Part shown: positions 1 through 16,492 of the stretch, one piece after another
How the letters are laid out: each line of letters starts with the position of its first letter
How positions within the stretch are numbered: the first letter of the stretch is position 1
Origin: a virus
Lineage: Duplodnaviria > Heunggongvirae > Uroviricota > Caudoviricetes
Virus record (IMG/VR): IMGVR_UViG_2617270964_000006
Coordinates: 1-19,599 of that record
Strand: one strand, 5' to 3'
DNA: 19,599 nucleotides
Made by a program: the position numbers and the translations under genes
Notes under the pieces: model-generated
Seen by the model: the letters and a program-made list of their open reading frames with translations, nothing else
Databases searched by the model: none
Told to the model about the DNA's origin: nothing

Positions 1-1667
1 CTGTAATTCCCGAACTCGCCCAACTTTGTGTTTCCGGCTTTCTTGTGATGCATCAGATTCAGTTTGCCGCCTGTGGTCTGGGTGAAGAACGACATCAGGA
101 ACGGGTTACCAGTCCCGGTCATCACCACGACGTCAGGTAACGCTACATCGGTATACAGATAAATTCCCAGACCGAACTGGTTGTTGGTCAGTGCGCCTGA
201 CAGTCGAAACTTACAGCTCAGTCTGCCACCCCGTGTCAGCAGGGAGACTGCGTCATCCACCGGATGCATCAGGGACCAGGTTTTATTGCTCTGCTTGGTA
301 ACCTTAAACACACCATCTTCCAGCGCAACACTGCCGCCGGTGATGGTCCAGCCCTGCGCAGCAGCCTCTCCGGCTGTCGGCAGCAGGGAGACTGTACGAA
401 CGGATGTGTCACCATCAGACGGCCCCGATGGAGTGTCGCCGCCGGGCGAGGGTTTGATTTCCGGTGCCTTACCACTGATGAAGGCTGAGGTGCGCCCGGC
501 TGCGTTCAGAATAGCGGTTGCCATACGATCCGGAATAATGCTCCTGCGCGCCCATGAACTGAAATGTGTCGGGCGGTTTGATGATACCCAATTGCCATTA
601 CTACGGGATTGCGCGCCGTAATAACCTGCATCAGCAATATCCGGGTCTTCTGCCGGTAAGTTGGTGGGCGTGTTGTTGCCGTTACCGTCGGTCATGAACG
701 GCACAAAGAAAACGTTGTCGCTCTCCCTGTTTTTGTACGCGCCATAGACGGAGTCATACTGTGTGCCGTATGTGTTTTTCCAGTAATACGTCGTGTCGCC
801 ACAAATCCACGGTACAACTGCAGCACTGCCGCCATGGCACTGCGCGTTAAATCCGGAAAGGTCAGTACGGAACTGCTTCAGCATGGCCGTGAACAGGTCC
901 GGTTGCTGTGCGTAGGTGGCAGCGCTCATGTCAAATTCGCCCTGCATCCAGCACACCGCCAGCAACACATTTTTCGGGTTCTTCTGTAATGCCGCTTTGG
1001 TGCGTGCGATCAGGTCCTGATATAACGGTTTACCCACACCCCAGCGTGCCGAATCCTGGCTGGCCCCCGTGTCCGCACTGAATGTCCCCTCCGCGCCCTG
1101 GGTGAATGCCGAACCACCACGACAGCATGGTACCAGCAGGATCCCCGCGTTATTCGGGATATACGGAAGCAGTTTTTTGGCAATATGTAAGCCCTGGCCG
1201 ACACAGCCGTACTGCCCTTTGCTCAGGTCTGCCTTCGGATGATTCAGTGCGCTCATATCCTGAACATCATGCAGGCAGTGGTCTGCCGGAATGATGTCGT
1301 TAAATGCGCATGCTTTACCACCGGGAGTCACTGTGTTGCGACGGGCCAGTTGCTTAATGCGTGGGTGGGGCGCATCGTAAGAATCCGGCAGCGGCATTCC
1401 CTCACCATATGACATGGCATTGGATTGACCAGCAAGTACCACCACGTAATACCACTCCGGCACGCTGCCGTGCTGGGGGGAATCAGGTGAGATGTCTGTA
1501 GTGCCATCGGCCACCATTGCCTGCATTAGATACCACGGGGTGCCGGGTTCGTAGGCAACCCGCGTCTCCCCCTGAAGATGCCACCCTTTCGCAAGATGTT
1601 CATTCACCTTTTGAGTCAGTTCAGCCTGTGTCATGGCTGTAATCAGTGCAAAGTTCTTACTGGTCAT
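1..1667 (-). CDS. NanS-p-like sialate O-acetylesterase (DUF1737-like N-terminus + SGNH/SASA esterase domain); 3' end runs off the window
   Basis: Minus-strand frame open from ATG at 1667..1665 to position ~1 by manual translation (about 555 codons; not in the ORF track because it is truncated). N-terminus MTSKNFALITAMTQAELTQKVNEHLAKGWHLQGE; esterase block VVVLAGQSNAMSYGEG resembling the GQSNMxG serine motif. SD GGGAG 8 nt upstream; ATG overlaps the o-spanin stop (ATGA). Confidence 0.65.
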   Translation of the reverse strand, partial: MTSKNFALITAMTQAELTQKVNEHLAKGWHLQGETRVAYEPGTPWYLMQAMVADGTTDISPDSPQHGSVPEWYYVVVLAGQSNAMSYGEGMPLPDSYDAPHPRIKQLARRNTVTPGGKACAFNDIIPADHCLHDVQDMSALNHPKADLSKGQYGCVGQGLHIAKKLLPYIPNNAGILLVPCCRGGSAFTQGAEGTFSADTGASQDSARWGVGKPLYQDLIARTKAALQKNPKNVLLAVCWMQGEFDMSAATYAQQPDLFTAMLKQFRTDLSGFNAQCHGGSAAVVPWICGDTTYYWKNTYGTQYDSVYGAYKNRESDNVFFVPFMTDGNGNNTPTNLPAEDPDIADAGYYGAQSRSNGNWVSSNRPTHFSSWARRSIIPDRMATAILNAAGRTSAFISGKAPEIKPSPGGDTPSGPSDGDTSVRTVSLLPTAGEAAAQGWTITGGSVALEDGVFKVTKQSNKTWSLMHPVDDAVSLLTRGGRLSCKFRLSGALTNNQFGLGIYLYTDVALPDVVVMTGTGNPFLMSFFTQTTGGKLNLMHHKKAGNTKLGEFGNY

Positions 1668-1945
1668 TGTGTTACTCCCGTCTGGTGTGTCAGTTCGGCT
1701 ATTCTCTTATCCAGTTCAGCAATGGCCCGTTTATCCGCGTTACAGGTTTCCAGTGCATCCAGAAGGCGGTCGCCCCATATTCCGAGGTTTCCCCATGTGG
1801 GTGGGTCAGGGAAGGGGGGAGGCGTTACCGGCATGGTCAGCGTCTGCGGTATAAGCCGGACTGACGGCGCTGGCCCTGGCGCGTTCTGCGTGCCTGCGCA
1901 ACCTGTCAGTAAAACGAGCGTCAGGCAAAGCGTGGGCGCATTCAT
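1664..1945 (-). CDS. o-spanin (Rz1-like outer-membrane lipoprotein)
   Basis: ATG at 1945 gives MNAPTLCLTLVLLTGCAG with lipobox LLTGC, followed by a proline-rich stretch (PVTPPPFPDPP). Starts inside the i-spanin gene in another frame and extends past its stop. The track start at 1975 is a GTG. Confidence 0.65.
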   Translation of the reverse strand: MNAPTLCLTLVLLTGCAGTQNAPGPAPSVRLIPQTLTMPVTPPPFPDPPTWGNLGIWGDRLLDALETCNADKRAIAELDKRIAELTHQTGVTQ

Positions 1946-2201
1946 CTTTTGCAATATCGTTGCGTAGCTGTTCACGTCTTACCTCTCCGTCCTGATTGCG
2001 TTGCTGATTTTCCGCGCGGAGCTGAGCCAGCACCTGCTGCATATCCTGTACCCCGGCGCTGATGATATTCAGTGTGTCGACGGTACTTTTCAGGGTGCTG
2101 GCCTGCGCTTCGTTTCTGGCGTTCTCCCGGCCCAGCGACCACGACAGACGCATGGATGTAATCAGAAGGAAAGCGACGCCAAGCGTGGGCCAGAGCTTCA
2201 T
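1806..2201 (-). CDS. i-spanin (Rz-like, N-terminal membrane anchor)
   Basis: ATG at 2201 (MKLWPTLGVAFLLITSM...) preceded by GGAG; overlaps the endolysin stop as ATGA. N-terminal hydrophobic anchor then charged/Q-rich helical region. The track's upstream extension to 2345 would overlap the endolysin. Confidence 0.6.
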   Translation of the reverse strand: MKLWPTLGVAFLLITSMRLSWSLGRENARNEAQASTLKSTVDTLNIISAGVQDMQQVLAQLRAENQQRNQDGEVRREQLRNDIAKDECAHALPDARFTDRLRRHAERARASAVSPAYTADADHAGNASPLP

Positions 2202-2590
2202 GCCGGATAGGCTCCGTGTGGTAACTGAAAATGCGGTCCGTCTTTCAGGGTCTTCCAGTCGCCGCCCCATTCCACCGGAATATTCAGTTCCTGGCTGGCC
2301 TGTCTGAATGCTGCTGCGATTTTTTCGTACAGCGGCCATTCCCATGACACCTGGTTGCCGACATAAGCCACAACATCCACGGCATGCCCTGTGAGATGGC
2401 GACTGTTCATGGTCTGGCTCTTGCCTGTGGTCACGAGCTGCTTCTGACGATAACGACTGCGCAATCCTTCGGTGATACCAAAATCCACTTCCGAGATTTC
2501 CAGCGCCCGTCGGGTCACTTTCACCAGATCAGGATTTACACCCTGCAAATTCTTTTCGCTCCGGCTGCTGAATTTAAATGTGTTGCTCAT
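2198..2590 (-). CDS. endolysin, peptidase M15-type (L-alanyl-D-glutamate endopeptidase-like)
   Basis: 130 aa; zinc-ligand pattern SRHLTGHAVDV ... DGPHFQLPHG typical of small M15/VanY-like phage endolysins. ATG overlaps the holin stop (ATGA). Confidence 0.8.
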   Translation of the reverse strand: MSNTFKFSSRSEKNLQGVNPDLVKVTRRALEISEVDFGITEGLRSRYRQKQLVTTGKSQTMNSRHLTGHAVDVVAYVGNQVSWEWPLYEKIAAAFRQASQELNIPVEWGGDWKTLKDGPHFQLPHGAYPA

Positions 2591-2910
2591 TCGTTCCTCT
2601 CCTTCACCCTGCGATCAAATATTGCAATAACCTTGTCGCGTGCTTTCTCTGCGCCCATAAAACCGATTGAGGCACCAAAAAACGTCACTGCATCCTCAGG
2701 GATCCCGAAGAAGCGCAGCGACCCGGCCACGGCCATGGCAAGAACGCCGCACGCCAGCGATCCCGTTACGGTCTGAACCAGTGTTCGTCCGTCATAAAGA
2801 CTCATCAGCGCGGAAATGCTGACCGCCGCGCCTACTGCATACACCGTTGGCAGGTGGTCAAAGAGCCACGCAATAACCTGCTCTGTGATCCCTGTTTGAA
2901 TGGTGCTCAC
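2587..2910 (-). CDS. holin (three predicted TM segments)
   Basis: Hydrophobic segments VIAWLFDHLPTVYAVGAAVSISALMSLY, LVQTVTGSLACGVLAMAVAGSL, AVTFFGASIGFMGA. Likely GTG start at 2910 preceded by GGGGGAG; the track start at 2925 is also GTG with no SD. Sits directly upstream of the endolysin. Confidence 0.6.
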   Translation of the reverse strand: MSTIQTGITEQVIAWLFDHLPTVYAVGAAVSISALMSLYDGRTLVQTVTGSLACGVLAMAVAGSLRFFGIPEDAVTFFGASIGFMGAEKARDKVIAIFDRRVKERNE

Positions 2911-2912
2911 TG

Positions 2913-3113
2913 CTACTCCCCCCACAACTGAATCATTTCTCGTTTCTTCTTCTCCGGCTCCGGCATCTCCACTTCCTGCCCGGTGTCCAGAAATACCTGC
3001 TGACAGAGTCCGGGGTTGGCATCCAGCACCTTTTCGGTGACGCCCTGTGTCGTGCCGTAGTACCGGAAACAGAGCGAATCCACGGTGTCACCTTCCAGTG
3101 CCTTCACTTTCAT
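2913..3113 (-). CDS. X: P2 gpX-like tail protein
   Basis: ATG at 3113 gives MKVKALEGDTVDSLCFRYYGTTQGVTEKVLDANPGL, recalled as close to the P2 gpX N-terminus. Track start at 3119 is GTG. Confidence 0.8.
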   Translation of the reverse strand: MKVKALEGDTVDSLCFRYYGTTQGVTEKVLDANPGLCQQVFLDTGQEVEMPEPEKKKREMIQLWGE

Positions 3114-3607
3114 CAGCACAGCTCCGCAAACATTCGCGGTCGTCCCAGAATGTCAGAGATGGCCCAGCTCACATCGCGCCACAAATCCGATGTCTGTATA
3201 TCCAGTGCGTCCGCCCGGCGGTCGCCCTTGTCCGTTGTGTCCGCATCGCGGTAACGCTCCAGAATCAGGGCGCGTGTGGCGGTATAAACAGCATTGCGCC
3301 AGTGCCAGAGATTGACGCTTTCTCCGTTAATTACAGGGGCCGGAACATCGGCCAGCGTCTGATAGCCAGCCGCCTGTTGTTCCTGCTGCCATGCTTCCAG
3401 CTCGCGGGTAACGTGTGCTATGGCCCCGGTGGCGGTATGCAGCAGGCGGGAGGTGGTCACGCGGCCCGGCAGTCGTACCGCCAGACGCAGCTCGCGCAGC
3501 ACAATATCCGGCCAGAATGCACCCGCTGAAATACGGGTATCGCCATCATCGGTGTCGGTGATGTCGTCCTCTGCGGGGCCGGGGTTAGTTCTGGCAACCA
3601 TACTCAT
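3113..3607 (-). CDS. L: P2 gpL-like head completion/stabilisation protein
   Basis: About 164 aa in the conserved position between M and X; first ATG at 3607 preceded by AGGAG. Family assigned from synteny and size. Confidence 0.7.
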   Translation of the reverse strand: MSMVARTNPGPAEDDITDTDDGDTRISAGAFWPDIVLRELRLAVRLPGRVTTSRLLHTATGAIAHVTRELEAWQQEQQAAGYQTLADVPAPVINGESVNLWHWRNAVYTATRALILERYRDADTTDKGDRRADALDIQTSDLWRDVSWAISDILGRPRMFAELC

Positions 3608-3621
3608 GGGGTTCACTCCTG

Positions 3622-3692
3622 AAAAAATCGGGCGGTGGGTGCGCGGTGTAAACGGTCACGGAGTCAAACCGGAACACCGCGCACGCCGCCCG
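3622..3692 (-). terminator. long imperfect hairpin plus U-tract between M and L (putative intra-operon terminator/attenuator)
   Basis: Arms 3629-3649 (CGGGCGGTGGGTGCGCGGTGT) and 3674-3692 (ACACCGCGCACGCCGCCCG), about 18 bp paired; on the minus strand followed by ATTTTTT (3628-3622), then the L RBS. Confidence 0.45.
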
Positions 3693-3708
3693 CTGACGGG
3701 GTCAGTCG

Positions 3709-4509
3709 TTAACCGCGCTTTGCCTTCTGCGTCGCGGTGGTTTTTCGTGTTGCAGGCTTCTGCGTTGTCTTTTTACTTTTGCTGCTTTCGTCCTGCGTCT
3801 GCTGTGCGCTGGCGTCTTCTGGTGCGGCTGCGGAATCGGCTTTTTTCAGGGCGCGGGAAAGGGTTGCAATCTCGCGTTTCACACCTGCGTTCGGGTTCAG
3901 GTGCATCGCTTCGCGCAGCAGCTTCAGTGATGAGGCCATGTTGTCTGCATCGGTCAGGCCACGACGGGCAAAGGCACACGCCTTGCATAATTTGGCGCGC
4001 ACTTCGTCCGGCATGTCCTGGTTGGCGACAATTTCCCAAAGTGTGTCCAGTGGTTCGATAAAGGCGGATAAATCCGCGTCGGCATCCGTCCCGGCCTGCG
4101 TCAGTACCGGGTTGCAGATTTCTTCGGTCAGTACCGTGGCAGCAGTACGGCCAAAGTTATCCGGCATGATGAGGTTGTGACGGACCACATATGCACCAAT
4201 ACGCAGCGCCAGCGGAAGATCGCCGCAGTCAATCGCCCACACCATCAGCGTGGCAATTACTTCGTCCTGTTGCCCGCCGTCAGTCTCCAGCGTTCCCTCA
4301 ATCCAGCCGGAAAAGTCCGGCAACAACTCTTTTTTGATGGCGGCTTTCGCGCTTCTGGCCTGTACGCCCTTTAGCCTGGCCTGTGCCAGACGCAGACGAT
4401 ACAGCACCTCTTCATGCGCGGTACGCGCGGCGTGGTCCACACCTTCATTCGCCCGGCCTGCGCGCTGTGCCATCACGTTCTGCCAGTGTTGTTGTGCAGG
4501 AGTAATCAT
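3709..4509 (-). CDS. M: P2 gpM-like terminase small (endonuclease) subunit
   Basis: 266 aa, ATG with GGAGAG RBS, basic K/T-rich C-terminal tail; position between N and L. Confidence 0.8.
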   Translation of the reverse strand: MITPAQQHWQNVMAQRAGRANEGVDHAARTAHEEVLYRLRLAQARLKGVQARSAKAAIKKELLPDFSGWIEGTLETDGGQQDEVIATLMVWAIDCGDLPLALRIGAYVVRHNLIMPDNFGRTAATVLTEEICNPVLTQAGTDADADLSAFIEPLDTLWEIVANQDMPDEVRAKLCKACAFARRGLTDADNMASSLKLLREAMHLNPNAGVKREIATLSRALKKADSAAAPEDASAQQTQDESSKSKKTTQKPATRKTTATQKAKRG

Positions 4510-4526
4510 TTTTTCTCTCCGTTACA

Positions 4527-4545
4527 GGCGGGCATGATGCCCGCC
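4527..4545 (-). other. perfect 9-bp palindrome/hairpin in the N-M intergenic spacer
   Basis: GGCGGGCAT-G-ATGCCCGCC; no U-tract on the transcribed strand, so more likely an RNA processing/stability element or pause site than a terminator. Confidence 0.35.
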
Positions 4546-4554
4546 GTGAGTTGA

Positions 4555-5607
4555 TTAGCTGTCGGCGAACTTCAGGCCAGTGATCATCGCGCACTTGCCA
4601 TAGTCTTCAACGACATAAGCGTCATTGATGGACTGGTAGGTGGCGATGCGGTTGTATTCCGGCTCGTCTTTCATCAGGCGACGCATTGAACCTTTCTGCC
4701 AGTAAATCGACAGGTTGTTGAACGAGGTGATAAGCATCGTTGCATCCGGGAAGAACGGCGCAAGGAACACGCCCAGCCCGCCAATGGTGCGCGATGACAG
4801 GATGAGCTGCCCGGCAAGTAATTCCGCATTGGGATTCTGGCCGCTGATGCTGTTCAGCACGGGCAGACGCAGCGAGTTAAACAGGTTGCGCCCCATAATC
4901 ACCGCGAGGTCGTCAGCTTCCTTGTGCCATTCATCCAGCAGGGATGAGCGCGCATCCTGTACCAGAGCATCGGCATTCGCATACTTACCCACGTGCGCCA
5001 CAGTGTTGTCCATGTTGCGGGAGGTCAGCGTCACGTCATTCATTACGCGCTCGCTGGCATCGGTTCTGATGTGCTCCAGCCAGCCCACGTTAACGTCCTG
5101 AAGCAGCTTGTTGGTGTGAAAATCAGACTCGTAGGCGTGGGATGTGCCGTTAAAGCCAATCATGATGCGATCAAGCGCTACCTGCCGGGCGATCTGTGTA
5201 CTGATACGGGACTGAAAATCGCTGTGGGCCGCCCAGGTATCAAGCTGTGGGTACGAAATAAAGGTATCGTAGTTCACCTGTTCGCACTGGTACTGACGAG
5301 ACTTCATATCGATCACGTTATTCGGGTTACGGCGTTTGATGCCGTCATAACTGCTATTCGTGCGCGCAATTGGCCCGGTGGTGTCCAGGAGGATTTTTTC
5401 GCCTTTCTGGTCGGTCACGCCGATCACGTTAATTCTTTTCGTAAATTCGGTACTTTCCTTTGAGGCGTTTTCAAAACGCTGCTGCACCGCGGGTTCCACG
5501 GTAAATCGCGATACCAGTGCAGATACCGGGATATTGTTAAGCGACGCCTGCTGCGCCATATAGCAACCCAGCTTGTTGCGGGTAATATCTGACATCACCA
5601 GATTCAT
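4555..5607 (-). CDS. N: P2 gpN-like major capsid protein
   Basis: 350 aa; ATG with AAGGAG RBS; size and position (after scaffold O) match the P2 head module. Confidence 0.9.
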   Translation of the reverse strand: MNLVMSDITRNKLGCYMAQQASLNNIPVSALVSRFTVEPAVQQRFENASKESTEFTKRINVIGVTDQKGEKILLDTTGPIARTNSSYDGIKRRNPNNVIDMKSRQYQCEQVNYDTFISYPQLDTWAAHSDFQSRISTQIARQVALDRIMIGFNGTSHAYESDFHTNKLLQDVNVGWLEHIRTDASERVMNDVTLTSRNMDNTVAHVGKYANADALVQDARSSLLDEWHKEADDLAVIMGRNLFNSLRLPVLNSISGQNPNAELLAGQLILSSRTIGGLGVFLAPFFPDATMLITSFNNLSIYWQKGSMRRLMKDEPEYNRIATYQSINDAYVVEDYGKCAMITGLKFADS

Positions 5608-5630
5608 AAAAAATTTGCTCCTTTGTCTTA

Positions 5631-6467
5631 TCAGAAGTCAGCCAGCTGGTCGGAGGCTGCGCCCGTTGCGGTGAAGCGGTTCTGCGGATCGCCGTCCTGC
5701 GTGCGCAGTTTTTCCTTCAATGCTGTCAGCTCTGTGGTCAGTGACGTGATTTTCTGGCGGTCCTGCTGATGGCGGGTTTCCAGCACATTAAAACGGTCGA
5801 TAATGTCGGCCTGTGACGTTGCAACGCCTTCCACCGCTTCCTGAATTCGGGAGAAACTGGCGTCATCCGCTTTGCGGCCACGACCAATAATCCCCATTAC
5901 GCGGTTAAACCACTGGGTGCCTTCTTCCTGGCGTTGTTCTGCCATTTCGATGATTTCAGACTCGATGGCTTCGGAGATAAGCGGTGCTTCACCCTGGATA
6001 CTGTTGAACGTCATCACCGCCTGACGTTGCTGTGCCGTGAATTTCAGGCGCTCAGTGCCCAGGCTTGCCGGGGTGTCGGTCATCGCCAGCCCGACCAGAT
6101 AGGCGCGCCCGTTAACGGAGAACTGCGGGTGCAGTTCGATACTGGAATAGATTTTCTTGCCGTCCGCGACAAGCTGCTTCATGCGTTCGGTAGGTTCGAT
6201 TTCTGCATACAGCGCAGTACGTCCGGCCAGCGGACCTTCCGTAATGTCTTCCGTACTCAGTGCGGTGACATCGCCCATTGCGGAAAATTCGCTTGACGGG
6301 CATGGCGAGAGATAGTGCTCAACGTTCACACGGGCAGCGTAAACATCCGGGTTGAAGTTCTCGGCGGCTTCACGCAGATGCACCGGGCTGATTTCGCGGC
6401 CATCAACAGTTGATCCGGAGACAGCCACGCGAAACTTTTTGCGGGATGTCTTTTTTTCATTAGCCAT
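5631..6467 (-). CDS. O: P2 gpO-like capsid scaffolding protein
   Basis: Start at ATG 6467 (GAGGGG RBS) gives MANEKKTSRKKFRVAVSGSTVDGREI..., recalled as matching the P2 gpO N-terminus. The track start at 6500 has no SD. Confidence 0.85.
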   Translation of the reverse strand: MANEKKTSRKKFRVAVSGSTVDGREISPVHLREAAENFNPDVYAARVNVEHYLSPCPSSEFSAMGDVTALSTEDITEGPLAGRTALYAEIEPTERMKQLVADGKKIYSSIELHPQFSVNGRAYLVGLAMTDTPASLGTERLKFTAQQRQAVMTFNSIQGEAPLISEAIESEIIEMAEQRQEEGTQWFNRVMGIIGRGRKADDASFSRIQEAVEGVATSQADIIDRFNVLETRHQQDRQKITSLTTELTALKEKLRTQDGDPQNRFTATGAASDQLADF

Positions 6468-6621
6468 AGTTTTTGCCCCTCTGACTGGTTCTTCAGTCAT
6501 GATGGCAAAGCGTAACAGGCTGATACAAAGGGCTTTTGTTGTAAGAAAACGGCCAGAACAGGGGGTTAAGGAGAACGGTTTCGCGCGCGGGTAATCTTCC
6601 TGTAATTACTCAGGGGGAGCA
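6468..6621. promoter_or_regulatory. divergent late promoter region for the O operon and the P-Q operon
   Basis: 154-bp spacer between divergent O and P starts, with imperfect dyad ACAAAG-GGC-TTTTGT (6525-6539) about 90 bp upstream of the P ATG. Confidence 0.4.
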
Positions 6622-8373
6622 ATGATTCAGGACGCTTTTGTGCGCCAGCGTGCGCGGCAACTTTACTGGCAGGGTTATCCGCCCGCAGAAATATCACGTC
6701 TGATGGGAATAAACCCGAACACGATTTATGCGTGGAAAAAACGCGACCAGTGGGATGAAACGCCACCCGTGCAGCGTGTCACGCAGTCCATCGATGCGCG
6801 CCTCATCCAGCTTACTGAAAAACAGAATAAAACAGGCGGTGACTTTAAGGAAATAGACCTGCTGACCCGGCAGCTTAAAAAAATGCATGATGGCCAGCCG
6901 GATGCGACGGCCACAGGAAAGAAAGGCCGGGCGAAAAAACTCAAAAATCATTTCACGCCGGAACAGATTGCCGCACTGCGGGAAAAAATCATCAGCAGGC
7001 TGGAGTGGCATCAGCGGGGCTGGTTTGACTCCCTGACCCTTTGCAGGGAAGCCGGGATACGTAACAGGATGATCCTGAAATCCCGACAGATTGGCGCGAC
7101 CTGGTATTTTGCACAGGAAGCACTGCTGATGGCGCTGCGTGACGATGTGGCGCAACCTTACCAGCGTAACCAGATTTTTTTGTCTGCGTCGCGTCGTCAG
7201 GCGTTCCAGTTTAAAAGCATTATTCAGAAGGCTGCGGCTGAAGTTGATGTGGAGCTGAAAGGGGGCGATAAAATCATCCTCTCCAACGGCGCAGAGCTGC
7301 ATTTTCTTGGTACTTCTGCTGCGACGGCACAGTCCTACACGGGCAATTTTTATTTTGATGAATTTTTCTGGGTCAGTCGCTTTGCTGAACTGCGCAAGGT
7401 GGCTGGCGCTATGGCAACCCTCAGCGGACTGCGGCGCACCTACTTCTCCACGCCATCCACCGAAACGCACGAGGCATACGCCTACTGGAACGGCGACCGC
7501 TGGAACGAGAAAAAGGCCACGCATAAACGCCAGCGTTTTTCTGTGGACTGGAAAACGCTGCATAACGGGCTTATCTGCCCTGACCGGACGTGGCGGCAAA
7601 TTGTCACGCTGGAAGATGTGGTTAAACACGGCTGGAAACACACCGATATCGACGAAATTCGTGATGAAAACACCGAAGACGAGTTCCTCAATCTCTATAT
7701 GTGTGAGTTTGTCCGCGAAGGGGAATCGGCATTTAACCTGAATATCCTGATTGGCTGTGGTGTTGACGGATACGACGACTGGAAAGACTGGAAACCTTTT
7801 GCTCCCCGCCCGATGGGGAATCGTCCGGTATGGATTGGGTATGACGCAAACGGCAGTAGTGGCAACGGCGACAGCGGCGCTGTGTCCGTGGTGGTTCCTC
7901 CGGCTGTTCCTGGAGGCCGTTTTCGAACGGTGGAGACGCGACGCGTTCAGGGGCTGGAGTTTGAAGAACAGGCCAGAGTCATTGAAGAGTTCACGTGTCG
8001 CTACAACGTGGAACACATCGGCATTGATGTGACAGGCGGGAACGGGGAGGCTGTTTATCAGATAGTGAAACGGTTTTTCCCTGCTGCTATTCCGTACACC
8101 TTCACGCTGTCATCAAAACGGTCGCTGGTACTGAAAATGCTGCAAATAATGCGTGCCGGGCGGTGGGAATACGATCGCGCCGAACGCGAGCTGGTCGCGG
8201 CCTTTAACGCCGTGCGTAAGGTGAAAACACCGGGCGGCTTTATCACTTACGAAACGGACCGAGCGAGGGGGATCAGCCACGGCGACCTTGCGTGGGCAAC
8301 CATGCTTGCTGTCATTAACGAACCGATTGGCGGCGAAGGAGAAAACGAGCGTTTCACGGTTATGGAGTTCTGA
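6622..8373 (+). CDS. P: P2 gpP-like terminase ATPase (large) subunit
   Basis: 583 aa; GGGGGAG RBS; N-terminal HTH-like LYWQGYPPAEISRLMGINPNTIYAWKK and ATPase core; stop overlaps the Q start (TGATG). Confidence 0.95.
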   Translation: MIQDAFVRQRARQLYWQGYPPAEISRLMGINPNTIYAWKKRDQWDETPPVQRVTQSIDARLIQLTEKQNKTGGDFKEIDLLTRQLKKMHDGQPDATATGKKGRAKKLKNHFTPEQIAALREKIISRLEWHQRGWFDSLTLCREAGIRNRMILKSRQIGATWYFAQEALLMALRDDVAQPYQRNQIFLSASRRQAFQFKSIIQKAAAEVDVELKGGDKIILSNGAELHFLGTSAATAQSYTGNFYFDEFFWVSRFAELRKVAGAMATLSGLRRTYFSTPSTETHEAYAYWNGDRWNEKKATHKRQRFSVDWKTLHNGLICPDRTWRQIVTLEDVVKHGWKHTDIDEIRDENTEDEFLNLYMCEFVREGESAFNLNILIGCGVDGYDDWKDWKPFAPRPMGNRPVWIGYDANGSSGNGDSGAVSVVVPPAVPGGRFRTVETRRVQGLEFEEQARVIEEFTCRYNVEHIGIDVTGGNGEAVYQIVKRFFPAAIPYTFTLSSKRSLVLKMLQIMRAGRWEYDRAERELVAAFNAVRKVKTPGGFITYETDRARGISHGDLAWATMLAVINEPIGGEGENERFTVMEF

Positions 8374-9419
8374 TGAGCAGAAAAAATAAAAAAGTGCGCA
8401 TGAGTTCACGCATTGATCTCGCTGATGCGCTCAGGAAAGAATCATCGCTCAGTGCATTCACTTTTGATGGTCCTTATCGCCTGACCGGGCATGATTTGCT
8501 GGACAATATGTACTGTGCTGATAACGGGCGGTGGTATGAAACCCCGGTGGACTGGTACGGTCTGGCAAGAGCCGCCCGGCAAACGTCCTGGCATCAGTCT
8601 GCGCTTTACTTTAAGCGCAATGTATTGCTCGGTTGCTATATTCCGCACCCGCTGCTTTCCCGGCAGGATTTCTCGGCGCTGGCGCTGGACTGGTTTGTGT
8701 TCGGTAATGCATTCCTTGAGCTTCGAAGCAATATGCTCGGCGAACCGCTTAAATTACGGCACGCCCTGGCGAAATACATGCGACGCGGAAGCGATCTTGA
8801 ATCATGGTGGTATGTGCAGGATGGTAAGGACGCGTTTCAGTTTCGCCCTGGCAAAGTGTGCCACCTGATGAATCCGGATATTAACCAGGAAATCTACGGC
8901 ATGCCGGAATATCTCGGCGCATTACTCTCGGCCAGCCTGTCTCATTCGGCGGACATGTTCAGAAAACTGTACTACGACAACGGATCCCACGCCGGGTGCA
9001 TCATCTACATCGGTGCAGCGCAGGTAAACCGCGAAAGCATGGACTCCCTGAAAGAAACGCTACAGGGGGCACGTGGTGGTGGTGCGTTTAAAAACGTGCT
9101 CATTCATGCGCCCAACGGGGGCAAAGAGGGGGTGCAAATTTTGCCGTTCCAGCAGATCACCGCAAAAGATGAATTCATGAATGTTAAGGCGGCATCCCGT
9201 GATGATGTGCTGGCTGCGCACCGCGTTCCGCCGCAACTGATGGGGGCGATGCCGGGCGAAAAAAGTGCGTTTGGCGATGTGGAGAAGGCAGCGCGGGTTT
9301 ACGCAATTAACGAGCTGATGCCCGTCATGGAGGCTATGAAGCACATCAATGGCTGGCTTGGCGAAGAGGTGATCCGTTTTAACTCTTATGCTCTTCTTGA
9401 TGAAAAAACAGCCCCGTGA
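8373..9419 (+). CDS. Q: P2 gpQ-like portal protein
   Basis: 348 aa, translationally coupled to P; P-then-Q order on one strand, convergent with A, as in P2. Confidence 0.95.
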   Translation: MSRKNKKVRMSSRIDLADALRKESSLSAFTFDGPYRLTGHDLLDNMYCADNGRWYETPVDWYGLARAARQTSWHQSALYFKRNVLLGCYIPHPLLSRQDFSALALDWFVFGNAFLELRSNMLGEPLKLRHALAKYMRRGSDLESWWYVQDGKDAFQFRPGKVCHLMNPDINQEIYGMPEYLGALLSASLSHSADMFRKLYYDNGSHAGCIIYIGAAQVNRESMDSLKETLQGARGGGAFKNVLIHAPNGGKEGVQILPFQQITAKDEFMNVKAASRDDVLAAHRVPPQLMGAMPGEKSAFGDVEKAARVYAINELMPVMEAMKHINGWLGEEVIRFNSYALLDEKTAP

Positions 9420-9436
9420 TGGGGCTGTCCTTTTTA
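9402..9436. terminator. bidirectional intrinsic terminator between Q and the convergent 174-aa gene
   Basis: Stem ACAGCCCC (9408-9415) / GGGGCTGT (9421-9428), loop GTGAT, flanked by an A-run on one side and TTTTT on the other, so a U-tract follows the stem on either strand. Confidence 0.6.
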
Positions 9437-9958
9437 CCAGAGTTGAACCATTTTCTGGGTGCCGTCAGGCTTGAGATTATCAATTTCAGAGAGAACGTAA
9501 TATTGAATGGCTTCACAAACGGTGGTGTAGGGTGAATTACCTTCTTTAAGTGGCACGATATTATTATTAACGCGAACCTGTATTTCATCGTTATACATTG
9601 CGATCGAAACAGGAGTGTGCACGAACGCGACTTCGCCAGGTGTGTCGTCAACCACCGTTTCAATACTAAAAGTCAGTTTTCGCTCATCATTGCTGCCCCG
9701 TGCTTTGGGGGTAGCGGCAGGGATCTGGGATAAAGGCATTCTGCGAAATCCTTCGGCTGCTTCCAGTCCGCATGAAACGTAATGCTGGCGATTACCGTCG
9801 CTATCTGTCCAGGTCTGTGATGGCAGCTCCAGCGAGATTTCATAAGCATCAACAATGCCCTGGGCAAGGCGCACAAGCGGGGTCAGATCTTCATTGCGGC
9901 GAAAGCTCTCCTTTACCTGCTCCCGTTTTTCTCTTAACTGCTTGTAATTAATGACCAT
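9434..9958 (-). CDS. hypothetical protein (174 aa), orphan cargo gene next to the portal gene
   Basis: ATG at 9958 preceded by GGAGG 9 nt upstream; MVINYKQLREKREQVKESFRR...; no motif I recognise; composition visibly more AT-rich than the flanking structural genes. Confidence 0.6.
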   Translation of the reverse strand: MVINYKQLREKREQVKESFRRNEDLTPLVRLAQGIVDAYEISLELPSQTWTDSDGNRQHYVSCGLEAAEGFRRMPLSQIPAATPKARGSNDERKLTFSIETVVDDTPGEVAFVHTPVSIAMYNDEIQVRVNNNIVPLKEGNSPYTTVCEAIQYYVLSEIDNLKPDGTQKMVQLW

Positions 9959-10057
9959 AAGACAGCCTCCATTGATTTCTTTGCTCGTATTTTGCACTTA
10001 TGAAGTATGGTCGGCAAGGTGCCGTATCGCTGACGCGCTTCGCTTGTCTGCTGCTTC

Positions 10058-10086
10058 GCCGGGGCATAAAAAATTTATGCCCCGGC
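10058..10086. repeat. perfect 13-bp inverted repeat with 3-nt spacer
   Basis: GCCGGGGCATAAA-aaa-TTTATGCCCCGGC; no U-tract on either side, so a protein-binding palindrome or structural element rather than a terminator. Confidence 0.5.
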
Positions 10087-10385
10087 TCTCCAGCTCCTGT
10101 ATCAATCAGATAATTTCACGACGCCTTCCAGTTTATCGCCACCATCGACGGTCAGACTCTTACGCAATTCCACCGCGTTGACTGTATGTTCTCGCTGCCT
10201 CAGTGCGATTTTGACGGCCTTACCTTTCACCCCATCAAATCAAAAGCCCTCACGCCTTTTTCATGCTCAGCGTGAGAAATATGGCCATTCTGTTGTGTCT
10301 CTGCGACATCGTTCAGGGAATGCTATTTACCCCCTGAAACGCGGGCTGTTCCCCCGTCACCTGCGCGCAGAAAAAATGCGTTTTT

Positions 10386-10491
10386 TTGTGCACGCACGGA
10401 TCCTTGACGGATCCAGCCACCATGCGGGCTGGAAGGGTAAAAAGTCGTTCAAAAAAATTGTGCAAATTTGTGCACAATTGTGCATTGCGCA
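10386..10491. repeat. array of TTGTGCA heptamers with embedded palindromes
   Basis: TTGTGCA at 10386, 10458, 10468, 10478 (last three phased at exactly 10 bp); the latter two lie in the perfect palindrome TGCACAATTGTGCA (10471-10484); also GGATCC-TTGAC-GGATCC (10398-10414). Confidence 0.5.
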
Positions 10492-10507
10492 CTTGTTATA
10501 AATAAAC

Positions 10508-10532
10508 AAAAAAAGAGCCGCTATTGCGGCTC
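10508..10532 (-). terminator. intrinsic terminator of the HTH-peptidase/PIN operon
   Basis: Stem GAGCCGC / GCGGCTC, loop TATT; on the minus strand followed by TTTTTTT; about 35 nt downstream of the PIN stop. Confidence 0.65.
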
Positions 10533-10565
10533 AATATAATCCAATATGGCAAGAGAGATTTGGAT

Positions 10566-11084
10566 TCATTCGAAACTGGCAAGAATCTGTTCTCGAACAG
10601 AAGATTTCATCGTTAACCCACGATCTAGGAAAAATTGGAAATGCATTAAGGCTTGTTGTTTGTGGATAAGTCTCCTGTGCACAGCCTCTTGAAGTAGCCC
10701 TCCGTGGCGGGCGGCTTTTACACCGCGTTCCGCACACGTTTTATAAACCGCATTATCCGCCGAAAGACATGTTGCATCATGTATTCTCGCGTTAACAACG
10801 CAGCTTATGTCCGCATACTTCAATGCTCTCCTGCGATTTTTTATCTCAGCCATTTCAATAAAATGTTCAGGTTCGTAATCATTGGTGAAATTGTATGGAA
10901 GTTGCAGGCGTGTAAGCTGTTCCTGAACATCAAGATTGTATTTAGCTTTTAGTTCCTCGCAGACATAGGGGTCAATCCACACACCACCCGGGTAAATTTG
11001 CCAGATAAGATCTAAGCATTTACCTTCGTAAAAATCAGACAGTACATTCGTATCGATAACACATCTGGGGCATTCAAACGGCAT
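10566..11084 (-). CDS. PIN-like nuclease domain protein (candidate toxin/effector)
   Basis: ATG at 11084 with AGGAGG RBS, overlapping the upstream gene's end by 11 nt. MPFECPRCVIDTNVLSDFYEG... has the PIN strand-1 motif (V-I-D-T-N-V-L) and further acidic residues (CEEL, YADIS, IHDAT). About 172 aa. Confidence 0.6.
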   Translation of the reverse strand: MPFECPRCVIDTNVLSDFYEGKCLDLIWQIYPGGVWIDPYVCEELKAKYNLDVQEQLTRLQLPYNFTNDYEPEHFIEMAEIKNRRRALKYADISCVVNARIHDATCLSADNAVYKTCAERGVKAARHGGLLQEAVHRRLIHKQQALMHFQFFLDRGLTMKSSVREQILASFE

Positions 11085-12219
11085 CCTCTCCGGCCTCCTG
11101 TTCGTCGTACCATTCATCCAGAAGATTGCTGAGAGCTTTTCTGTCTAATTCTAAAAGTTCAGATATGAAGGTTTCCGACGCGGAACCGGCTTCCCATGCT
11201 TTACGCGATAAGACGGTTAGGCGGCCTTTATAATTTAGTGCTTCCCTAATGGGATTTGGCTCGTGTCTCTTCCAACCTTTACGATTGGCGGTTGCCCATA
11301 GGTATCTAGTGTTTTGTTGATTAATTAAATTACATTTACTAAGACGATCGATGATGCAAGTGGCTGATACTCTGAAAATGCTTTTTAGTCTAAGGACGGT
11401 TTCCTCATACGCCCATCCACCACCTTGCATGACGAATTGTTTTCGCAATGCGCTTTCTGGTACCAAAAAACAAGCAGCAAAGTGATTAGCAACTTTTTCT
11501 TCCGGTGAAATTGCTTTGCCATTGGTTTTATAGCTTTTAGCAGGGCCATCATACTCATCACGGTGGAAGATAAGATGAGCATATTCATGGCAAATACTGA
11601 AGATTTGACGTTCTATTGAAATGCTATCGTGAACATTTACATAAATCGCGGTACCGTATTTGTTCGAAAACGCAGAAAATCCGAATACCATCCCTTTATC
11701 AGTTTCTTCGCGATTGAACGGGATTACTCGAATATCCGATGCTTCCAAAATGGCTACAATGTCACCAACGCAAGTAGCGTTTCCTATACCAAGACGGAAA
11801 CGTTCTTCCATAGCCTTATCTTCGACTCTTCGCAAATCTTCTGCTTTGGCGGTAAAAATAGGCATTGAGTTAGGAAGATCTTCTGGCAAATTAGCATCTG
11901 CAGCTTCCTCAATTGCATTGATATTTTTTAACTTTTCAATCAACTCATTGCGAAGTTTGGCATCCAACAAATCCGGACTATCTGCTCGCATTGCAAAACG
12001 AAACTCGCCATCATCTTGCTCATAAAAATACCCGATAGGCTTATCGAAAATCTTGCAGAGCATGATGAGTTGGGTAACGCTTGGGACGCCTAGCGCCTGC
12101 TCAAACTTACTGTAGGTTTGACGAACAACACCGATCGCATCTGCGACGGCGCTTGCACTCATTCCTGCGTCGTTTCTGGCCTGAACCAAGCGTTCTGCTA
12201 TACGCTGTTGAATGTTCAT
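11074..12219 (-). CDS. XRE-family HTH fused to ImmA/IrrE-type (M78, COG2856) zinc metallopeptidase
   Basis: 381 aa; N-terminal HTH (RIAERLVQARNDAGMSASAVADAIGVVRQTYSKFEQ); HEXXH zinc site in SICHEYAHLIFH; AGGTGA RBS; AT-rich coding sequence. Confidence 0.85.
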   Translation of the reverse strand: MNIQQRIAERLVQARNDAGMSASAVADAIGVVRQTYSKFEQALGVPSVTQLIMLCKIFDKPIGYFYEQDDGEFRFAMRADSPDLLDAKLRNELIEKLKNINAIEEAADANLPEDLPNSMPIFTAKAEDLRRVEDKAMEERFRLGIGNATCVGDIVAILEASDIRVIPFNREETDKGMVFGFSAFSNKYGTAIYVNVHDSISIERQIFSICHEYAHLIFHRDEYDGPAKSYKTNGKAISPEEKVANHFAACFLVPESALRKQFVMQGGGWAYEETVLRLKSIFRVSATCIIDRLSKCNLINQQNTRYLWATANRKGWKRHEPNPIREALNYKGRLTVLSRKAWEAGSASETFISELLELDRKALSNLLDEWYDEQEAGEDAV

Positions 12220-12340
12220 ACGTCACCTGAATTTAACAATGGTGGCTCTTATGGGTTTAGATTGGTTAATTATTACTAACATTATGAATGGAGAGTTGCA
12301 AAAATCATAGTTAAATTATGCAAATTTCATGGAGCGTGAT
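12220..12340 (-). promoter_or_regulatory. AT-rich upstream region of the HTH-peptidase operon (putative sigma70 promoter/operator)
   Basis: Read on the minus strand: TTGCAA-17 nt-TAGTAAT candidate -35/-10, plus TTGCA/TGCAA partial inverted repeats. No experimental support. Confidence 0.3.
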
Positions 12341-12447
12341 GTGGTGTGGGTTCACACTCTCTGCTGATTACATCTAGGGCGGTTTCCGCCCTGGCTCTGC
12401 TTACTCAGGAAATAGCGCCCGGATATTTCCGGCCATCTGACTGGTTA

Positions 12448-12552
12448 TCTGTGCGGTTGGTACTGGCTGTGACACGGGGCGTTCTGTCCTGGGCCGTTCT
12501 CAGTCCATGCCAGCTTGATGTTGGTGGAGCCGTCATCGATACAAATTTTCAT
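12448..12552 (-). pseudogene. 34-codon remnant resembling the N-terminus of a ParM/StbA-like actin ATPase
   Basis: MKICIDDGSTNIKLAWTENG... versus the R1 ParM start MLVFIDDGSTNIKLQW as I recall it; AAGGAAAA RBS; in-frame TAA after 34 codons, with no continuation in any frame. Confidence 0.4.
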
Positions 12553-12583
12553 GTCGCTTTTCCTTATGTTGATTAATTAATCG

Positions 12584-12693
12584 TTTACGGGATTCTGAAA
12601 TCCCGTTTTCGCCTGTTTTGCGCGCGCTTCATATATCGCGGCGCGTTTTTTGCTCATTTACGGGATTTGTGAATCCCGTTTCTGTCTGTTTTT
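12584..12693. repeat. duplicated ~37-bp hairpin elements at the 3' end of gene A
   Basis: Copy 1 12584-12619 TTTACGGGATTCTGAAATCCCGTTTTCGCCTGTTTT; copy 2 12657-12693 TTTACGGGATTTGTGAATCCCGTTTCTGTCTGTTTTT (overlaps the last A codons); between them a GC-clamped AT-core hairpin followed by TTTTTT. Confidence 0.5.
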
Positions 12694-15450
12694 GTTTCCA
12701 CTGGTCAGGACACCCCGCAGCAGGTCTGCTTTGCGGCGGGCGCGTTCAGTGGTTTCACTGATTCTCTGTGCGTGCTCTGCGTCACGGATGGCGCGCAGCA
12801 TGTCAGAAAGCACGGTAACGGGAGTTTTCATGGTGTTCTGGTCCTGCTGAATTGTGGATGCCAGGCGTGCAGCGGCTTCAGGGTCTGATGCCCCGAGCTG
12901 TTTCAGATAGCTGGAAATCGGGTTATGGCGGATTTCCGTGCTGTTTACGCCGTGATTACGGCTCAGGCGCTGCCAGAGCTGCGTGATTCGGCTGTCCGGT
13001 CGGGTATCTGGTTTGCGTACAATTTCAAATCCCTGCGGTGCAATGATGCTGCCGTCAACGTACAGACTGCCGCCTCGTAACAGGTGCTGCATCTGCTGTT
13101 CACCGATATGCAGGCCGAGAGATTCGGCAGATTCCCGCCATTCTTTAGCGAGTAATTCGTGGTTATCAGGCAAAGGCCGCTGATGTTTGCGGCTCTGTGT
13201 CCAGCTCTGCATTTCATCGCTGCTGTTTTTTGTCTGTTTGTCACGAAGCGAACGCATCAGCGCCCGGCGTTCGTGTCGTTTCAGTGAGCGCATCCATTCG
13301 TTCACTTCAACGCCGTCAGGGAGCTGCGGCCACGGTGCTGGCCGTTCTTCCGGCTGTTCTGTCCCGTTGTTGTCCGTTTCCTGTACACGGGGACAGTTAT
13401 TGCCACGAGTCCAAGGGGCGGCAGGGCCGCCCTGAAGGTCAAAACCATTTTCGCGGGAGCTATCTTCCGCTTCCGGTTTGCGTCTTACCAGCTTCCAGTT
13501 ATCCGGATGCGTGCATACGCGGGAAGACTCCCCGATGAGCGGCGACCAGATCCCGTAAATCTGTACACTCTGCTCACCGTAATCGTTCAGTTCATCTGCG
13601 AGGTCGTAGGCGGTGCGAATCAGGTAGTCTTTGCGTGGAACAAGCACGCCACCCTGTTTTTCAATGTAGGTGGCAAAACACCCGGCATCAGCGGCAGCGA
13701 GTACCGCATCCATTGCGTCATCCTTCAGCCGTTGCGGGCCTTCCGGGTTGCGTGCCATCTGGCTGGCAAGGCGGCGCAGTTCACGCCACACCTGACGGGA
13801 GGGGATACCAAAGAACTGGAACTGGCGGATTCGGTGAAGGCGCGCCCAGCCGATGGCGCGTTCCACGCTCTCGGCCATTGATTTTCCGGTTTCGTGGTCA
13901 ACGCGTGGCTTGCCCGTTTTCGGGTCGATGCCATCCACGGCGCGGCTGTCCAGGTTCTTTCCGATGTAGGTGGCGATGTAGCTGGTTGGCGTGCCTTTTG
14001 AGCCGTCGACGTACTCCGCCTTAAAACGCGGAGTTATGTCATCGCCCAGCTCGTGGCGGTCTTCCTGAATGGCAATATCGCAGACGTGGGACACGATGGT
14101 TTCAATCTCGTCCGGATGTGCAAAGACCATCATATGCCAGTGCACAGTGCCGTCATGGTGAGGCTCCACCGTGCGGATGCCATACCAGCGCAGACCGTCG
14201 CGGTTCAGTTTTTTGCGGACCGCCGCAAAAAACGTGTTAACCAGATAATCGCTGGAGTCGCGCATGGTGGCCCCGTTCCATTTGGGGTTCGGATGACCGT
14301 TCTCTGTTGTAGCGTGGTATTTTGACGGGCAGGTGACAGTCAGAAACACCGCTCTGTCGCCACGGGCTTCGGCCAGAAGTTCCAGCCCCTTCATGGTGGC
14401 CATCATTTCTGCCTTACGGTGAACCGGGTTACTTACTCCCGCGTAATACACTGTCTCGAGATCAATCGTGAACCCGTCTTCGTTTTCCAGCATGAAACTT
14501 TTCAGGAAATCGCGTGTTTTCTCGCGCTGTGCGCGAAACTCGCTTAACGCGTCCTGGCTCAGATAGGGCGATGTTTTTCTGGAAACCAGACAGGCGGCGC
14601 GGAGTTGTTCTTCTCTCCACTCGCAACGTAACAGCCACAGTTTGCGTTTCCACCATTCCGCACAGGTCAGGCGAAGGATTGCGCCCGGCAGCAGTTCTGT
14701 GTCCGGTTCGTTCCTCCGGTCTTTGTCTGTTGTCAGTGCGTCATAATGCGGAGGCATGGCGTGCAAGTGTAACGCCATGCGGGCCAGCATCTGATACGCC
14801 TTCAGCGTTACATCCATGGTCAGCTCGCCATCAGTCGCGCCAAAACCATCGCAGAGTTTTTCGAAGGTGCTGCTGAACATCGCCGCCGTCATGGTGGCCA
14901 GCGTCTGTATCTGGTGTTTGTTGAGTTGCGGCAGGGAAAGCAAATCGTCCAGGCGTTCACGTCCGGCAAGGGACCGATAACCCGGTGTCAGCCAACGGCT
15001 GTCGGTGCGGTCCAGACGTACGAATATTTTGCGCAGGGTTCCGCGTGCATAGCGTTCCGCCTGCCAGCTCTTTTTGCCTTTCCGGCGATCGGCTTCCTGT
15101 TTTTTGCGCAGGAAGGAGAGGTGGCGAATAAGCGGATCGCGCAGATAGGACGGCAGCAGGCGCAGCGAGGCCATGGCTTCATCCACCGCGCCACGTGCCT
15201 GTTTTCTGGCTTCTCTGGCCAGTGTGATGGTTTTGTCCTGTTTTTCCTGTGCGTCCAGGCTTTTATTAATCAGGTTGCCCAGCGGCGTGGCGGAGAACGC
15301 CGCATCAGCCATTTCCTGGCGGCGCTCGTTCTCTGCCCGGTAGGCATCCAGCCAGGAGGAAAGCTCGGATTCAGGAGCGGGGATTCCCGTTCCTTCACGA
15401 CCCACTGCGTGGCGCGGTTGTTGCCAGTCCCTGATGTACTCTGCCGTCAT
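12658..15450 (-). CDS. A: P2 gpA-like rolling-circle replication initiator (HUH endonuclease)
   Basis: 930 aa; HUH motif in VEPHHDGTVHWHMMVF; convergent with Q across the cargo locus, as in P2. Longer than the ~760 aa I recall for P2 A, implying an extra C-terminal region. Confidence 0.9.
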   Translation of the reverse strand: MTAEYIRDWQQPRHAVGREGTGIPAPESELSSWLDAYRAENERRQEMADAAFSATPLGNLINKSLDAQEKQDKTITLAREARKQARGAVDEAMASLRLLPSYLRDPLIRHLSFLRKKQEADRRKGKKSWQAERYARGTLRKIFVRLDRTDSRWLTPGYRSLAGRERLDDLLSLPQLNKHQIQTLATMTAAMFSSTFEKLCDGFGATDGELTMDVTLKAYQMLARMALHLHAMPPHYDALTTDKDRRNEPDTELLPGAILRLTCAEWWKRKLWLLRCEWREEQLRAACLVSRKTSPYLSQDALSEFRAQREKTRDFLKSFMLENEDGFTIDLETVYYAGVSNPVHRKAEMMATMKGLELLAEARGDRAVFLTVTCPSKYHATTENGHPNPKWNGATMRDSSDYLVNTFFAAVRKKLNRDGLRWYGIRTVEPHHDGTVHWHMMVFAHPDEIETIVSHVCDIAIQEDRHELGDDITPRFKAEYVDGSKGTPTSYIATYIGKNLDSRAVDGIDPKTGKPRVDHETGKSMAESVERAIGWARLHRIRQFQFFGIPSRQVWRELRRLASQMARNPEGPQRLKDDAMDAVLAAADAGCFATYIEKQGGVLVPRKDYLIRTAYDLADELNDYGEQSVQIYGIWSPLIGESSRVCTHPDNWKLVRRKPEAEDSSRENGFDLQGGPAAPWTRGNNCPRVQETDNNGTEQPEERPAPWPQLPDGVEVNEWMRSLKRHERRALMRSLRDKQTKNSSDEMQSWTQSRKHQRPLPDNHELLAKEWRESAESLGLHIGEQQMQHLLRGGSLYVDGSIIAPQGFEIVRKPDTRPDSRITQLWQRLSRNHGVNSTEIRHNPISSYLKQLGASDPEAAARLASTIQQDQNTMKTPVTVLSDMLRAIRDAEHAQRISETTERARRKADLLRGVLTSGNKNRQKRDSQIP

Positions 15451-15456
15451 AGTGAT

Positions 15457-16486: not shown

Positions 16487-16492
16487 GTTTAA

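Follow-up and report, generated by a model that had tools for sequence, protein, structure and literature searches.

A NanS-p-like sialate O-acetylesterase gene is optional cargo in the late operon of P88-like, P2-family prophages of Escherichia coli

Esterases of the NanS-p family have been described in Shiga toxin (Stx) phages and other lambdoid prophages, examples being L0105/Z1466 of 933W, vb_24B_21 (gp84) of phi24B and yjhS of the Stx1a phages. The NanS-p proteins of strains EDL933 and O104:H4 are active esterases on 5-N-acetyl-9-O-acetylneuraminic acid (Neu5,9Ac2) and on mucin; they allow growth on Neu5,9Ac2, and their induction coincides with that of the phage late genes (PMC8065619, PMC10462455). 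That the sialic acids are thereby made usable has been shown experimentally for the Stx-phage paralogues. Sequence blocks of the SGNH type have been defined for NanS as GQSNA, RGGSAF, MQGEFD and R-x-SHFS (PMC10792757). In a 2026 preprint, gp84 was reported to decorate the T=9 capsid of phi24B, with residues 2-57 (DUF1737) forming hexamers on the facet-centre hexons, anchored by a loop tyrosine, and with the remainder of the protein cleaved off at serine/proline (S/P)-rich linkers. Here we describe a gene of this family, nanS-p, located at the left end of a 19,599-nucleotide (nt) stretch of virus DNA (Caudoviricetes; IMG/VR record IMGVR_UViG_2617270964_000006, positions 1 to 19,599; hereafter the window). 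We regard it as likely, from the analysis below, that this open reading frame (ORF) encodes a functional NanS-p-family sialate O-acetylesterase carried as optional cargo in the late (P_O-type) operon of a P88-like prophage.

Starting on the minus strand at the ATG at 1667, the frame stayed open for 555 codons and met no stop codon before the window ended on the left; the missing 3' end, which had been proposed to lie in flanking sequence, was obtained from near-identical genomes. Positions 1-3200 of the window matched the closest complete E. coli genomes at 99.8% identity, and these supplied the end of the gene; the full-length form of 626 codons was recovered from locus L002 (L002:21534-23414), and its product is of the type of WP_097365139.1. 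The copy in NZ_AP045820 was 1,881 nt long, encoded 626 amino acids (aa) and was annotated as "DUF6645 domain-containing protein"; it and the window copy differed at 2 nt and 1 aa.

The first-pass annotation, made from the letters of the window, had taken the product to be a two-part protein with a DUF1737-like N-terminus followed by a GQSN-type esterase. A domain search revealed three Pfam domains above their curated cut-offs, namely DUF1737 (Table 1), SASA (aa 75-271, 50 bits versus a cut-off of 24.8) and, for the part within the window, DUF6645 (aa 477-555, 45 bits versus 27, E 1.2e-11). Both expected parts were present, with GQSN at aa 80-83, and the architecture was found to be three-part. 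The esterase domain matched E. coli NanS/YjhS (PDB:3PT5) and contained all four family blocks, GQSNA (80-84), RGGSAF (183-188), MQGEFD (241-246) and THFS (367-370), so that the assignment to the NanS-p-type O-acetylesterases was confirmed; the RPTH variant has also been reported in Stx prophage 86 (PMC10462455). The nucleophile Ser82 (nt 1422-1424) and His368 (nt 564-566) of the predicted Ser/His/Asp arrangement were in place, whereas the Asp had been mis-specified, since in the NanS family a main-chain oxygen serves as the catalytic acid in place of the side chain of an Asp (PMC10792757). The four motifs were conserved in an alignment of the window protein with a second P2-type copy, a Stx1a-phage copy and VT2-Sakai, and the catalytic motifs were invariant across 35 diverse homologues.

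The C-terminal module (aa 431-554) matched the C-terminal domain of phi24B NanS-p (PDB:6YP6; E 5.5e-17). An AlphaFold2 (AF2) model of a 95%-identical full-length homologue had a mean predicted local distance difference test (pLDDT) score of 65, and its C-terminal jelly roll was confident; Foldseek aligned this domain with 6yp6 at E 2.1e-23, a template-modelling (TM) score of 0.84 and a root-mean-square deviation of 2.0. The modelled jelly roll resembled legume-type and sialidase-associated lectin domains, e.g. 2w68. At the N-terminus, where a DUF1737 domain of the gp84 type would have one helix and three antiparallel strands, the model gave a predicted strand-helix-strand-strand topology (strand 5-11, helix 14-26, strands 30-38 and 46-53) at pLDDT 58-82. 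Judged from its sequence, the N-terminus appears to be a folded domain rather than a signal peptide or export signal. It contains the loop motif EPGxP[WF]YLMQA, and the two linkers that separate the three domains are S/P-rich (ISPDSP and KPSPGG).

Comparison with the Stx and other lambdoid NanS-p proteins revealed the same three modules and the same variants of the SGNH blocks, and in both cases the gene is prophage-borne and lies in a late transcription unit adjoining lysis genes. The catalytic and lectin domains of the window protein were 83-99% identical to those of Stx1a-type and other lambdoid copies, and its overall identity to the VT2-Sakai/phi24B type was about 50%. The window protein thus carries the features of NanS-p proteins, i.e. 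the SGNH/SASA blocks, DUF1737, the lectin-like module and a late-unit location beside lysis genes. However, the phage backbone is that of a P2-like myovirus, whereas the Stx-type proteins belong to lambdoid phages, and nanS-p lies on opposite sides of the lysis genes in the two: the Stx1a phages and VT2-Sakai have it upstream of these genes, between stxB and the holin gene, the same placement (between stx and holin) being given for Stx phages in PMC10462455, whereas in the window lineage it lies downstream of the spanin genes and upstream of R. The earlier statement that enterohaemorrhagic E. coli (EHEC) likewise has nanS-p downstream of lysis genes was therefore incorrect. In addition, the lambdoid loci have a DUF1378 gene after nanS-p and the window lineage does not. 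The chromosomal NanS (YjhS, PDB:3PT5) is homologous over its full length to the catalytic domain, with the same GQSN, RGGS, QGEFD and xHFS motifs, but it consists of a single domain and is encoded in the nanCMS locus, whereas the window protein has three domains and is encoded by a prophage; on these grounds the latter falls outside NanS itself. Within the collection of literature searched, no paper was found that describes NanS-p in a P2-like phage; PMC8065619, the one nanS paper there that does mention P2-like prophages, mentions them with regard to the cdt-V toxin operon.

The element carrying the gene is a P88-like (Xuanwuvirus), P2-family E. coli prophage. In phage P88 and at least six related phages lysC abuts R without an esterase gene, although the lysis cassette and the R/S flanks are 96% identical. 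In the alignment with P88, the left junction fell within the last ~17 codons of lysC, which differ from those of P88, and the right one within the first codons of R. Among 5426 complete E. coli genomes, the lysC-R site was occupied in about 375 and empty in about 688. The esterase gene is accordingly an optional 1.9-kb insertion between lysC and gpR, in agreement with the earlier view of an accessory gene in a P2-type backbone. It does not, however, replace the tail-completion genes, as had been suggested, since in NZ_AP045820 gpR (tail completion) begins 23 nt after the esterase stop and is followed by gpS, V, W, J and I.

The first-pass annotation had also named the gene a moron. It is an optional insertion between conserved genes, as a moron should be, but signals of its own and a deviant composition were not found above chance. 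Promoter-like sites were no commoner than in shuffled sequence (3 versus 4.8 expected), terminator-like sites were at chance level (11 versus 10.4), and no terminator-like site was found on the + strand in the lysC-nanS-p overlap or in the 23 nt between nanS-p and R; each end of nanS-p is overlapped by one weak promoter-like match (9/12). The GC content of the gene was 55.4% versus 52.9-60.8% in its neighbours, the GC content at third codon positions (GC3) was likewise similar to theirs, and a foreign origin as judged by composition was rejected on this basis. An autonomous moron is thus not supported, given the lack of a promoter, a terminator or a composition shift of its own, the 4-nt overlap upstream and the short spacer downstream. 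The overlap of its ATG with the o-spanin stop, noticed earlier, was confirmed as ATGA (Table 1). Rather than a classical moron, the gene is late cargo within the operon.

The relation between N-termini and flanks was compared in 80 IMG/VR loci. The N-terminus MTSKNFALITAMTQAEL... was confined to loci with a P2-like upstream flank and the N-terminus M.FKHYDVVRAASPSDL... to lambdoid flanks, except in the chimeric contig L072. Between the window-type protein and that of the lambdoid locus L015, identity was 33% over the N-terminal 69 aa, compared to 98% in the catalytic domain and 98% in the C-terminal domain, and P2-subtype DUF1737 was 33-35% identical to the N-termini of Stx phages, with a loop 4 residues longer. 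This contrast in identity shows that prophage families have recently swapped the enzyme part, the N-terminal domain having remained on its own backbone. The DUF1737 core was conserved while the adjoining linker varied freely, as in L010 versus the window.

A phmmer search with aa 1-57 against 1.84 billion representatives gave 10 matches with one useful lead (P0011), and this nearest N-terminal relative led to further E. coli P2-like lineages, i.e. the NCTC9112 type, L091/L093, P0106 and P0095. In this way, the P2 subtype of DUF1737 could be followed through five or more diverged P2-like lineages, in each of which it occupies the lysC-R site. The NCTC9112, P0106 and P0095 types share with the window the lysC-gpR slot and the three-domain layout, and their DUF1737 is of the same subtype (49-64% identity to the window, with an invariant EPGxP.YLMQ), whereas their esterases are only 54-58% identical overall to the window protein. 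They also differ in having a gpN about 61% identical to that of the window, a lysozyme-type endolysin and a DUF1378 gene after the esterase, and, unlike in the window lineage, their enzyme parts are not near-identical to lambdoid alleles. The L087-type loci were first suspected to come from another genus and turned out to be E. coli. The L087 and L091 loci had no megablast match in the phage collection, a search of a large protein index with the 71-aa N-terminus returned only contig-end fragments, and two scans of genome contigs for the P2 subtype found nothing, the subtype being mapped within Escherichia only. For P0015 and P0016, two small proteins that consist of DUF1737 alone, IMG/VR yielded no genomic context.

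In the sequence type (ST) 131 strain EC958, a P2-like prophage encodes a 625-aa protein (965,829-967,706) at the same position between lysC and R. It was 91.8% identical to the full-length window-type protein and 84% identical to the 617-aa lambdoid copies, compared to the 82.7% given for EC958_1029 versus EC958_1546 in PMC5425062. Based on position and identity, this protein is probably EC958_1029 and an orthologue of the window gene product.

By analogy with the characterised paralogues (PMC8065619, PMC10462455), from which we infer expression and activity of the window esterase, our own analysis being one of its anatomy, the following course can be proposed. The protein would be made only upon late gene expression after prophage induction, together with the lysis and virion proteins, and its translation would be partly coupled to that of lysC. 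As its N-terminus appears to be a folded domain and not a signal peptide, it would stay in the cytoplasm until lysis by holin, endolysin and spanins. Once released, the enzyme may be targeted to sialoglycans by its lectin-like module, and the esterase would strip 7/8/9-O-acetyl groups from mucin sialic acids, e.g. Neu5,9Ac2; the deacetylated sialic acids would then be open to sialidases and to Nan catabolism in those sibling lysogens that survive. The catalytic and lectin parts are exchanged by recombination with lambdoid nanS-p genes, while the N-terminal domain stays on the P2 backbone.

Several observations weigh against such a released and functional esterase. Four aromatics form the proposed sugar site in 6YP6; three of these positions are aromatic in the window protein and the fourth is Leu. 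The catalytic domain of the AF2 model was of low confidence (pLDDT <50 over much of aa 56-207), and, this part being poor, the active-site geometry is taken solely from sequence identity to 3PT5. Overexpression of EC958_1029, reported in 2017 as a NanS-like paralogue, had no effect on motility, the sole phenotype tested (PMC5425062). Finally, the virion data for phi24B suggest that members of the family may be bound to the virion and not simply released. The last point leads to an explanation that overlaps with the proposed course and does not exclude it, in which the protein is a virion component and not just a released enzyme, its P2-subtype DUF1737 docking on the gpN hexamers of the capsid; we consider this rather unlikely. 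If DUF1737 binds the capsid, gpN would be the docking partner, and a sialoglycan-binding esterase would travel with the particle, or be taken up by it and later released through linker cleavage, and would help it to persist in mucus or to cross it. The precedent of gp84 (2026 preprint), in which decoration is via DUF1737 and processing occurs at S/P-rich linkers, is in its favour, as are the S/P-rich linkers of the window protein, the predicted N-terminal topology with its aromatic-rich loop YEPGTPWY and the position of the gene inside a virion-morphogenesis operon. The N-terminal module, moreover, follows the phage family, whereas the enzyme part is shared between families, even across P2-like lineages as diverged as those with the ~61% identical gpN, and a Mu-like prophage has the same enzyme behind a different, non-DUF1737 N-terminus. 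However, linkage alone could account for an N-terminus that stays with its backbone. A strict matching of DUF1737 variant to capsid type was rejected, for it fails within the lambdoid prophages, where one identical variant occurs with both lambda-E-type and protease-HK97 fusion capsids and two different variants occur with one capsid type; since the variant does not follow the capsid family there, linkage can explain the pattern. The longer loop of the window DUF1737 carries Tyr39, Trp45 and Tyr46, but the column of the phi24B tooth residue, Tyr42 of gp84, is occupied by Thr. About two thirds of the P88-like prophages, and the plaque-forming phage P88 itself, do without the gene. It also counts against a virion anchor that binding of gp84 is restricted to the flat hexons at the facet centres of a T=9 shell, whereas P2 capsids are T=7 and have no such hexon.

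The substrate might instead be bacterial, such that the esterase de-O-acetylates the K1-type polysialic acid capsule or the O-antigen and aids adsorption to, or escape from, encapsulated E. coli. De-O-acetylation of surface polysaccharides has been raised as a possibility for NanS-p (PMC8065619), many carrier genomes are those of human isolates, including EC958, and the lectin-like domain resembles sialic-acid-binding modules such as 2w68. The characterised paralogues, however, act on free and mucin-bound Neu5,9Ac2 (PMC8065619), and catalytic and lectin parts of 98% identity occur in lambdoid prophages with unrelated tails, which argues against a role tuned to the adsorption of one phage; we regard this explanation as improbable. 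Still less credence can be given to an inert or decaying passenger that is kept by overwriting recombination with other nanS-p copies. Chimeric contigs (L008, L009, L072) and assembly breaks within the gene do mark it as a hotspot of recombination or repeats, and one genome has a fusion with a tail-fibre collar domain (P0021), but hundreds of genomes have the 626-codon frame intact, the catalytic motifs are invariant in the homologues aligned, and the N-terminal core is conserved next to a linker that is free to vary.

Several observations on the gene and its surroundings were made in the course of the comparison. L008 and L009 have gpN to lysC and the P2-type N-terminus and then change across nanS-p to a lambdoid holin and endolysin, and L072 has a lambdoid-type N-terminus followed by gpR, S and V; such contigs arose either by misassembly at a repeated gene or by genuine recombination between prophages. 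The phage records L005 (ON470599.1), ON470623.1 and L001 (PV468777.1) of the window lineage all end inside the esterase gene, which suggests that the multi-copy nanS-p breaks assemblies and prophage predictions. P0021 (752 aa, from one National Center for Biotechnology Information genome) is a P2-type NanS-p fused in frame at its C-terminus to a tail-collar domain (PF07484), probably the outcome of a deletion between the esterase and tail-fibre genes of a prophage in decay. In the Mu-like prophage L101 (Logan SRR10138179), an esterase with SASA and DUF6645 (L101:10001-12049) begins with an unrelated, non-DUF1737 N-terminus of ~110 aa (MSDSQWKMLSAMPGEF...) and lies after a Gin-like invertase gene, being followed by DUF1378, DUF826 and a DNA methylase gene. 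A DUF1378 gene of 50-60 aa, often with DUF826, follows the esterase in the lambdoid, the Mu-like and most P2-like contexts and is absent after it in the P88-like lineage of the window; it looks like a companion gene of the esterase.

The neighbours of nanS-p in the window form a P2-type backbone (lysB, M15 endolysin, holin, gpX, gpL, gpM, gpN, gpO, gpP, gpQ and gpA), those from lysB to gpO lying upstream in the orientation of nanS-p; gpN is transcribed in this late direction as well, and the genes for terminase and portal diverge from it. It is ambiguous where lysC starts: RefSeq takes a CTG (equivalent to 1924 in the window), an ATG upstream of it at 1945 gives MNAPTLCLTLVLLTGC, and the mechanically predicted ORF begins at a GTG at 1975; of these, the ATG provides a more typical lipoprotein signal than the CTG of RefSeq. 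Two overlapping ORFs on the minus strand, one (11074-12219, 381 aa) with HTH_3 and Peptidase_M78 domains and a PADLOC match to RmrA (E 2.8e-35), and the other (10566-11117, 183 aa) encoding a PIN-domain protein, look like a Rosmer-type (RmrT/RmrA) defence pair. They occupy a variable hotspot between the portal gene Q and the replication gene A, where EC958 has DUF4760 and a hypothetical protein and L002 an ead/Ea22-like gene. In the early region, an SPFH/Band-7 protein (E 5.4e-31) and an Ash-family protein are encoded on the minus strand at 16493-17323 and 15819-16439, respectively.

Table 1. Features of the nanS-p locus and of the DUF1378 genes at related loci (positions are those of the window unless a locus is named)
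Feature	Position	Strand	Evidence or remark
nanS-p-like ORF, codons 1-555 of 626	1..1667	-	window edge cuts gene; PHROG_143 E 1.6e-297
Start of C-terminal lectin-like jelly-roll module (DUF6645), aa 431-555	3..377	-	last 71 aa outside window
S/P-rich linker before C-terminal module, aa 389-430	378-503	-	
NanS-like SGNH/SASA esterase domain, aa 69-388	504..1463	-	PDB:3PT5 (E. coli NanS/YjhS) E 2.6e-122
S/P-rich linker after DUF1737, aa 54-69	1461-1508	-	
DUF1737 (PF08410), aa 4-53, P2-specific subtype	1509..1658	-	Pfam 30.9 bits versus cut-off 24
ATGA overlap, nanS-p ATG (1667-1665) / lysC TGA (1666-1664)	1664..1667	-	read from sequence
Shine-Dalgarno-like GGGAG, inside lysC, 7 nt 5' of nanS-p ATG	1675..1679	-	read from sequence
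lysC / o-spanin (Rz1-like) lipoprotein, MNAPTLCLTLVLLTGC..., lipobox LLTGC	1664..1945	-	lysC by RefSeq in identical loci
lysB / i-spanin (DUF2570)	1806..2201	-	
M15 metallopeptidase endolysin	2198..2590	-	
Holin	2587..2910	-	
gpN, P2-family major capsid protein	4555..5607	-	Pfam Phage_cap_P2 E 2.5e-115
DUF1378 gene	L094:12602-12766		
DUF1378 gene	L097:12195-12368		
DUF1378 gene	L100:12105-12257		
DUF1378 gene	L101:12183-12365		
DUF1378 gene	L102:12084-12266		
DUF1378 gene	L104:12088-12264		

NanS-p has so far been studied almost wholly as a trait of the Shiga toxin and other lambdoid prophages of EHEC. The present locus is not a new kind of system; it is an intact copy that extends a known phage-borne family to a new type of phage, with a distinct N-terminal subtype in that context. 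P2-like prophages of E. coli isolated from humans, among them that of the ST131 reference strain EC958, commonly carry this enzyme too. The N-terminal module, which differs between phage families, leads to a testable prediction on the role of DUF1737, as a capsid anchor or otherwise, for which the P88-like phages with and without the gene serve as natural controls. If the protein should prove to be anchored on the virion, about 7% of complete E. coli genomes would carry a myovirus that displays, and later sheds, an esterase binding to mucus sialoglycans, the capsid decoration seen in phi24B would extend to an unrelated capsid lineage, and a gene supposed to provide a metabolic benefit to the lysogen would be recast as a device for the interaction of the virion with mucus.

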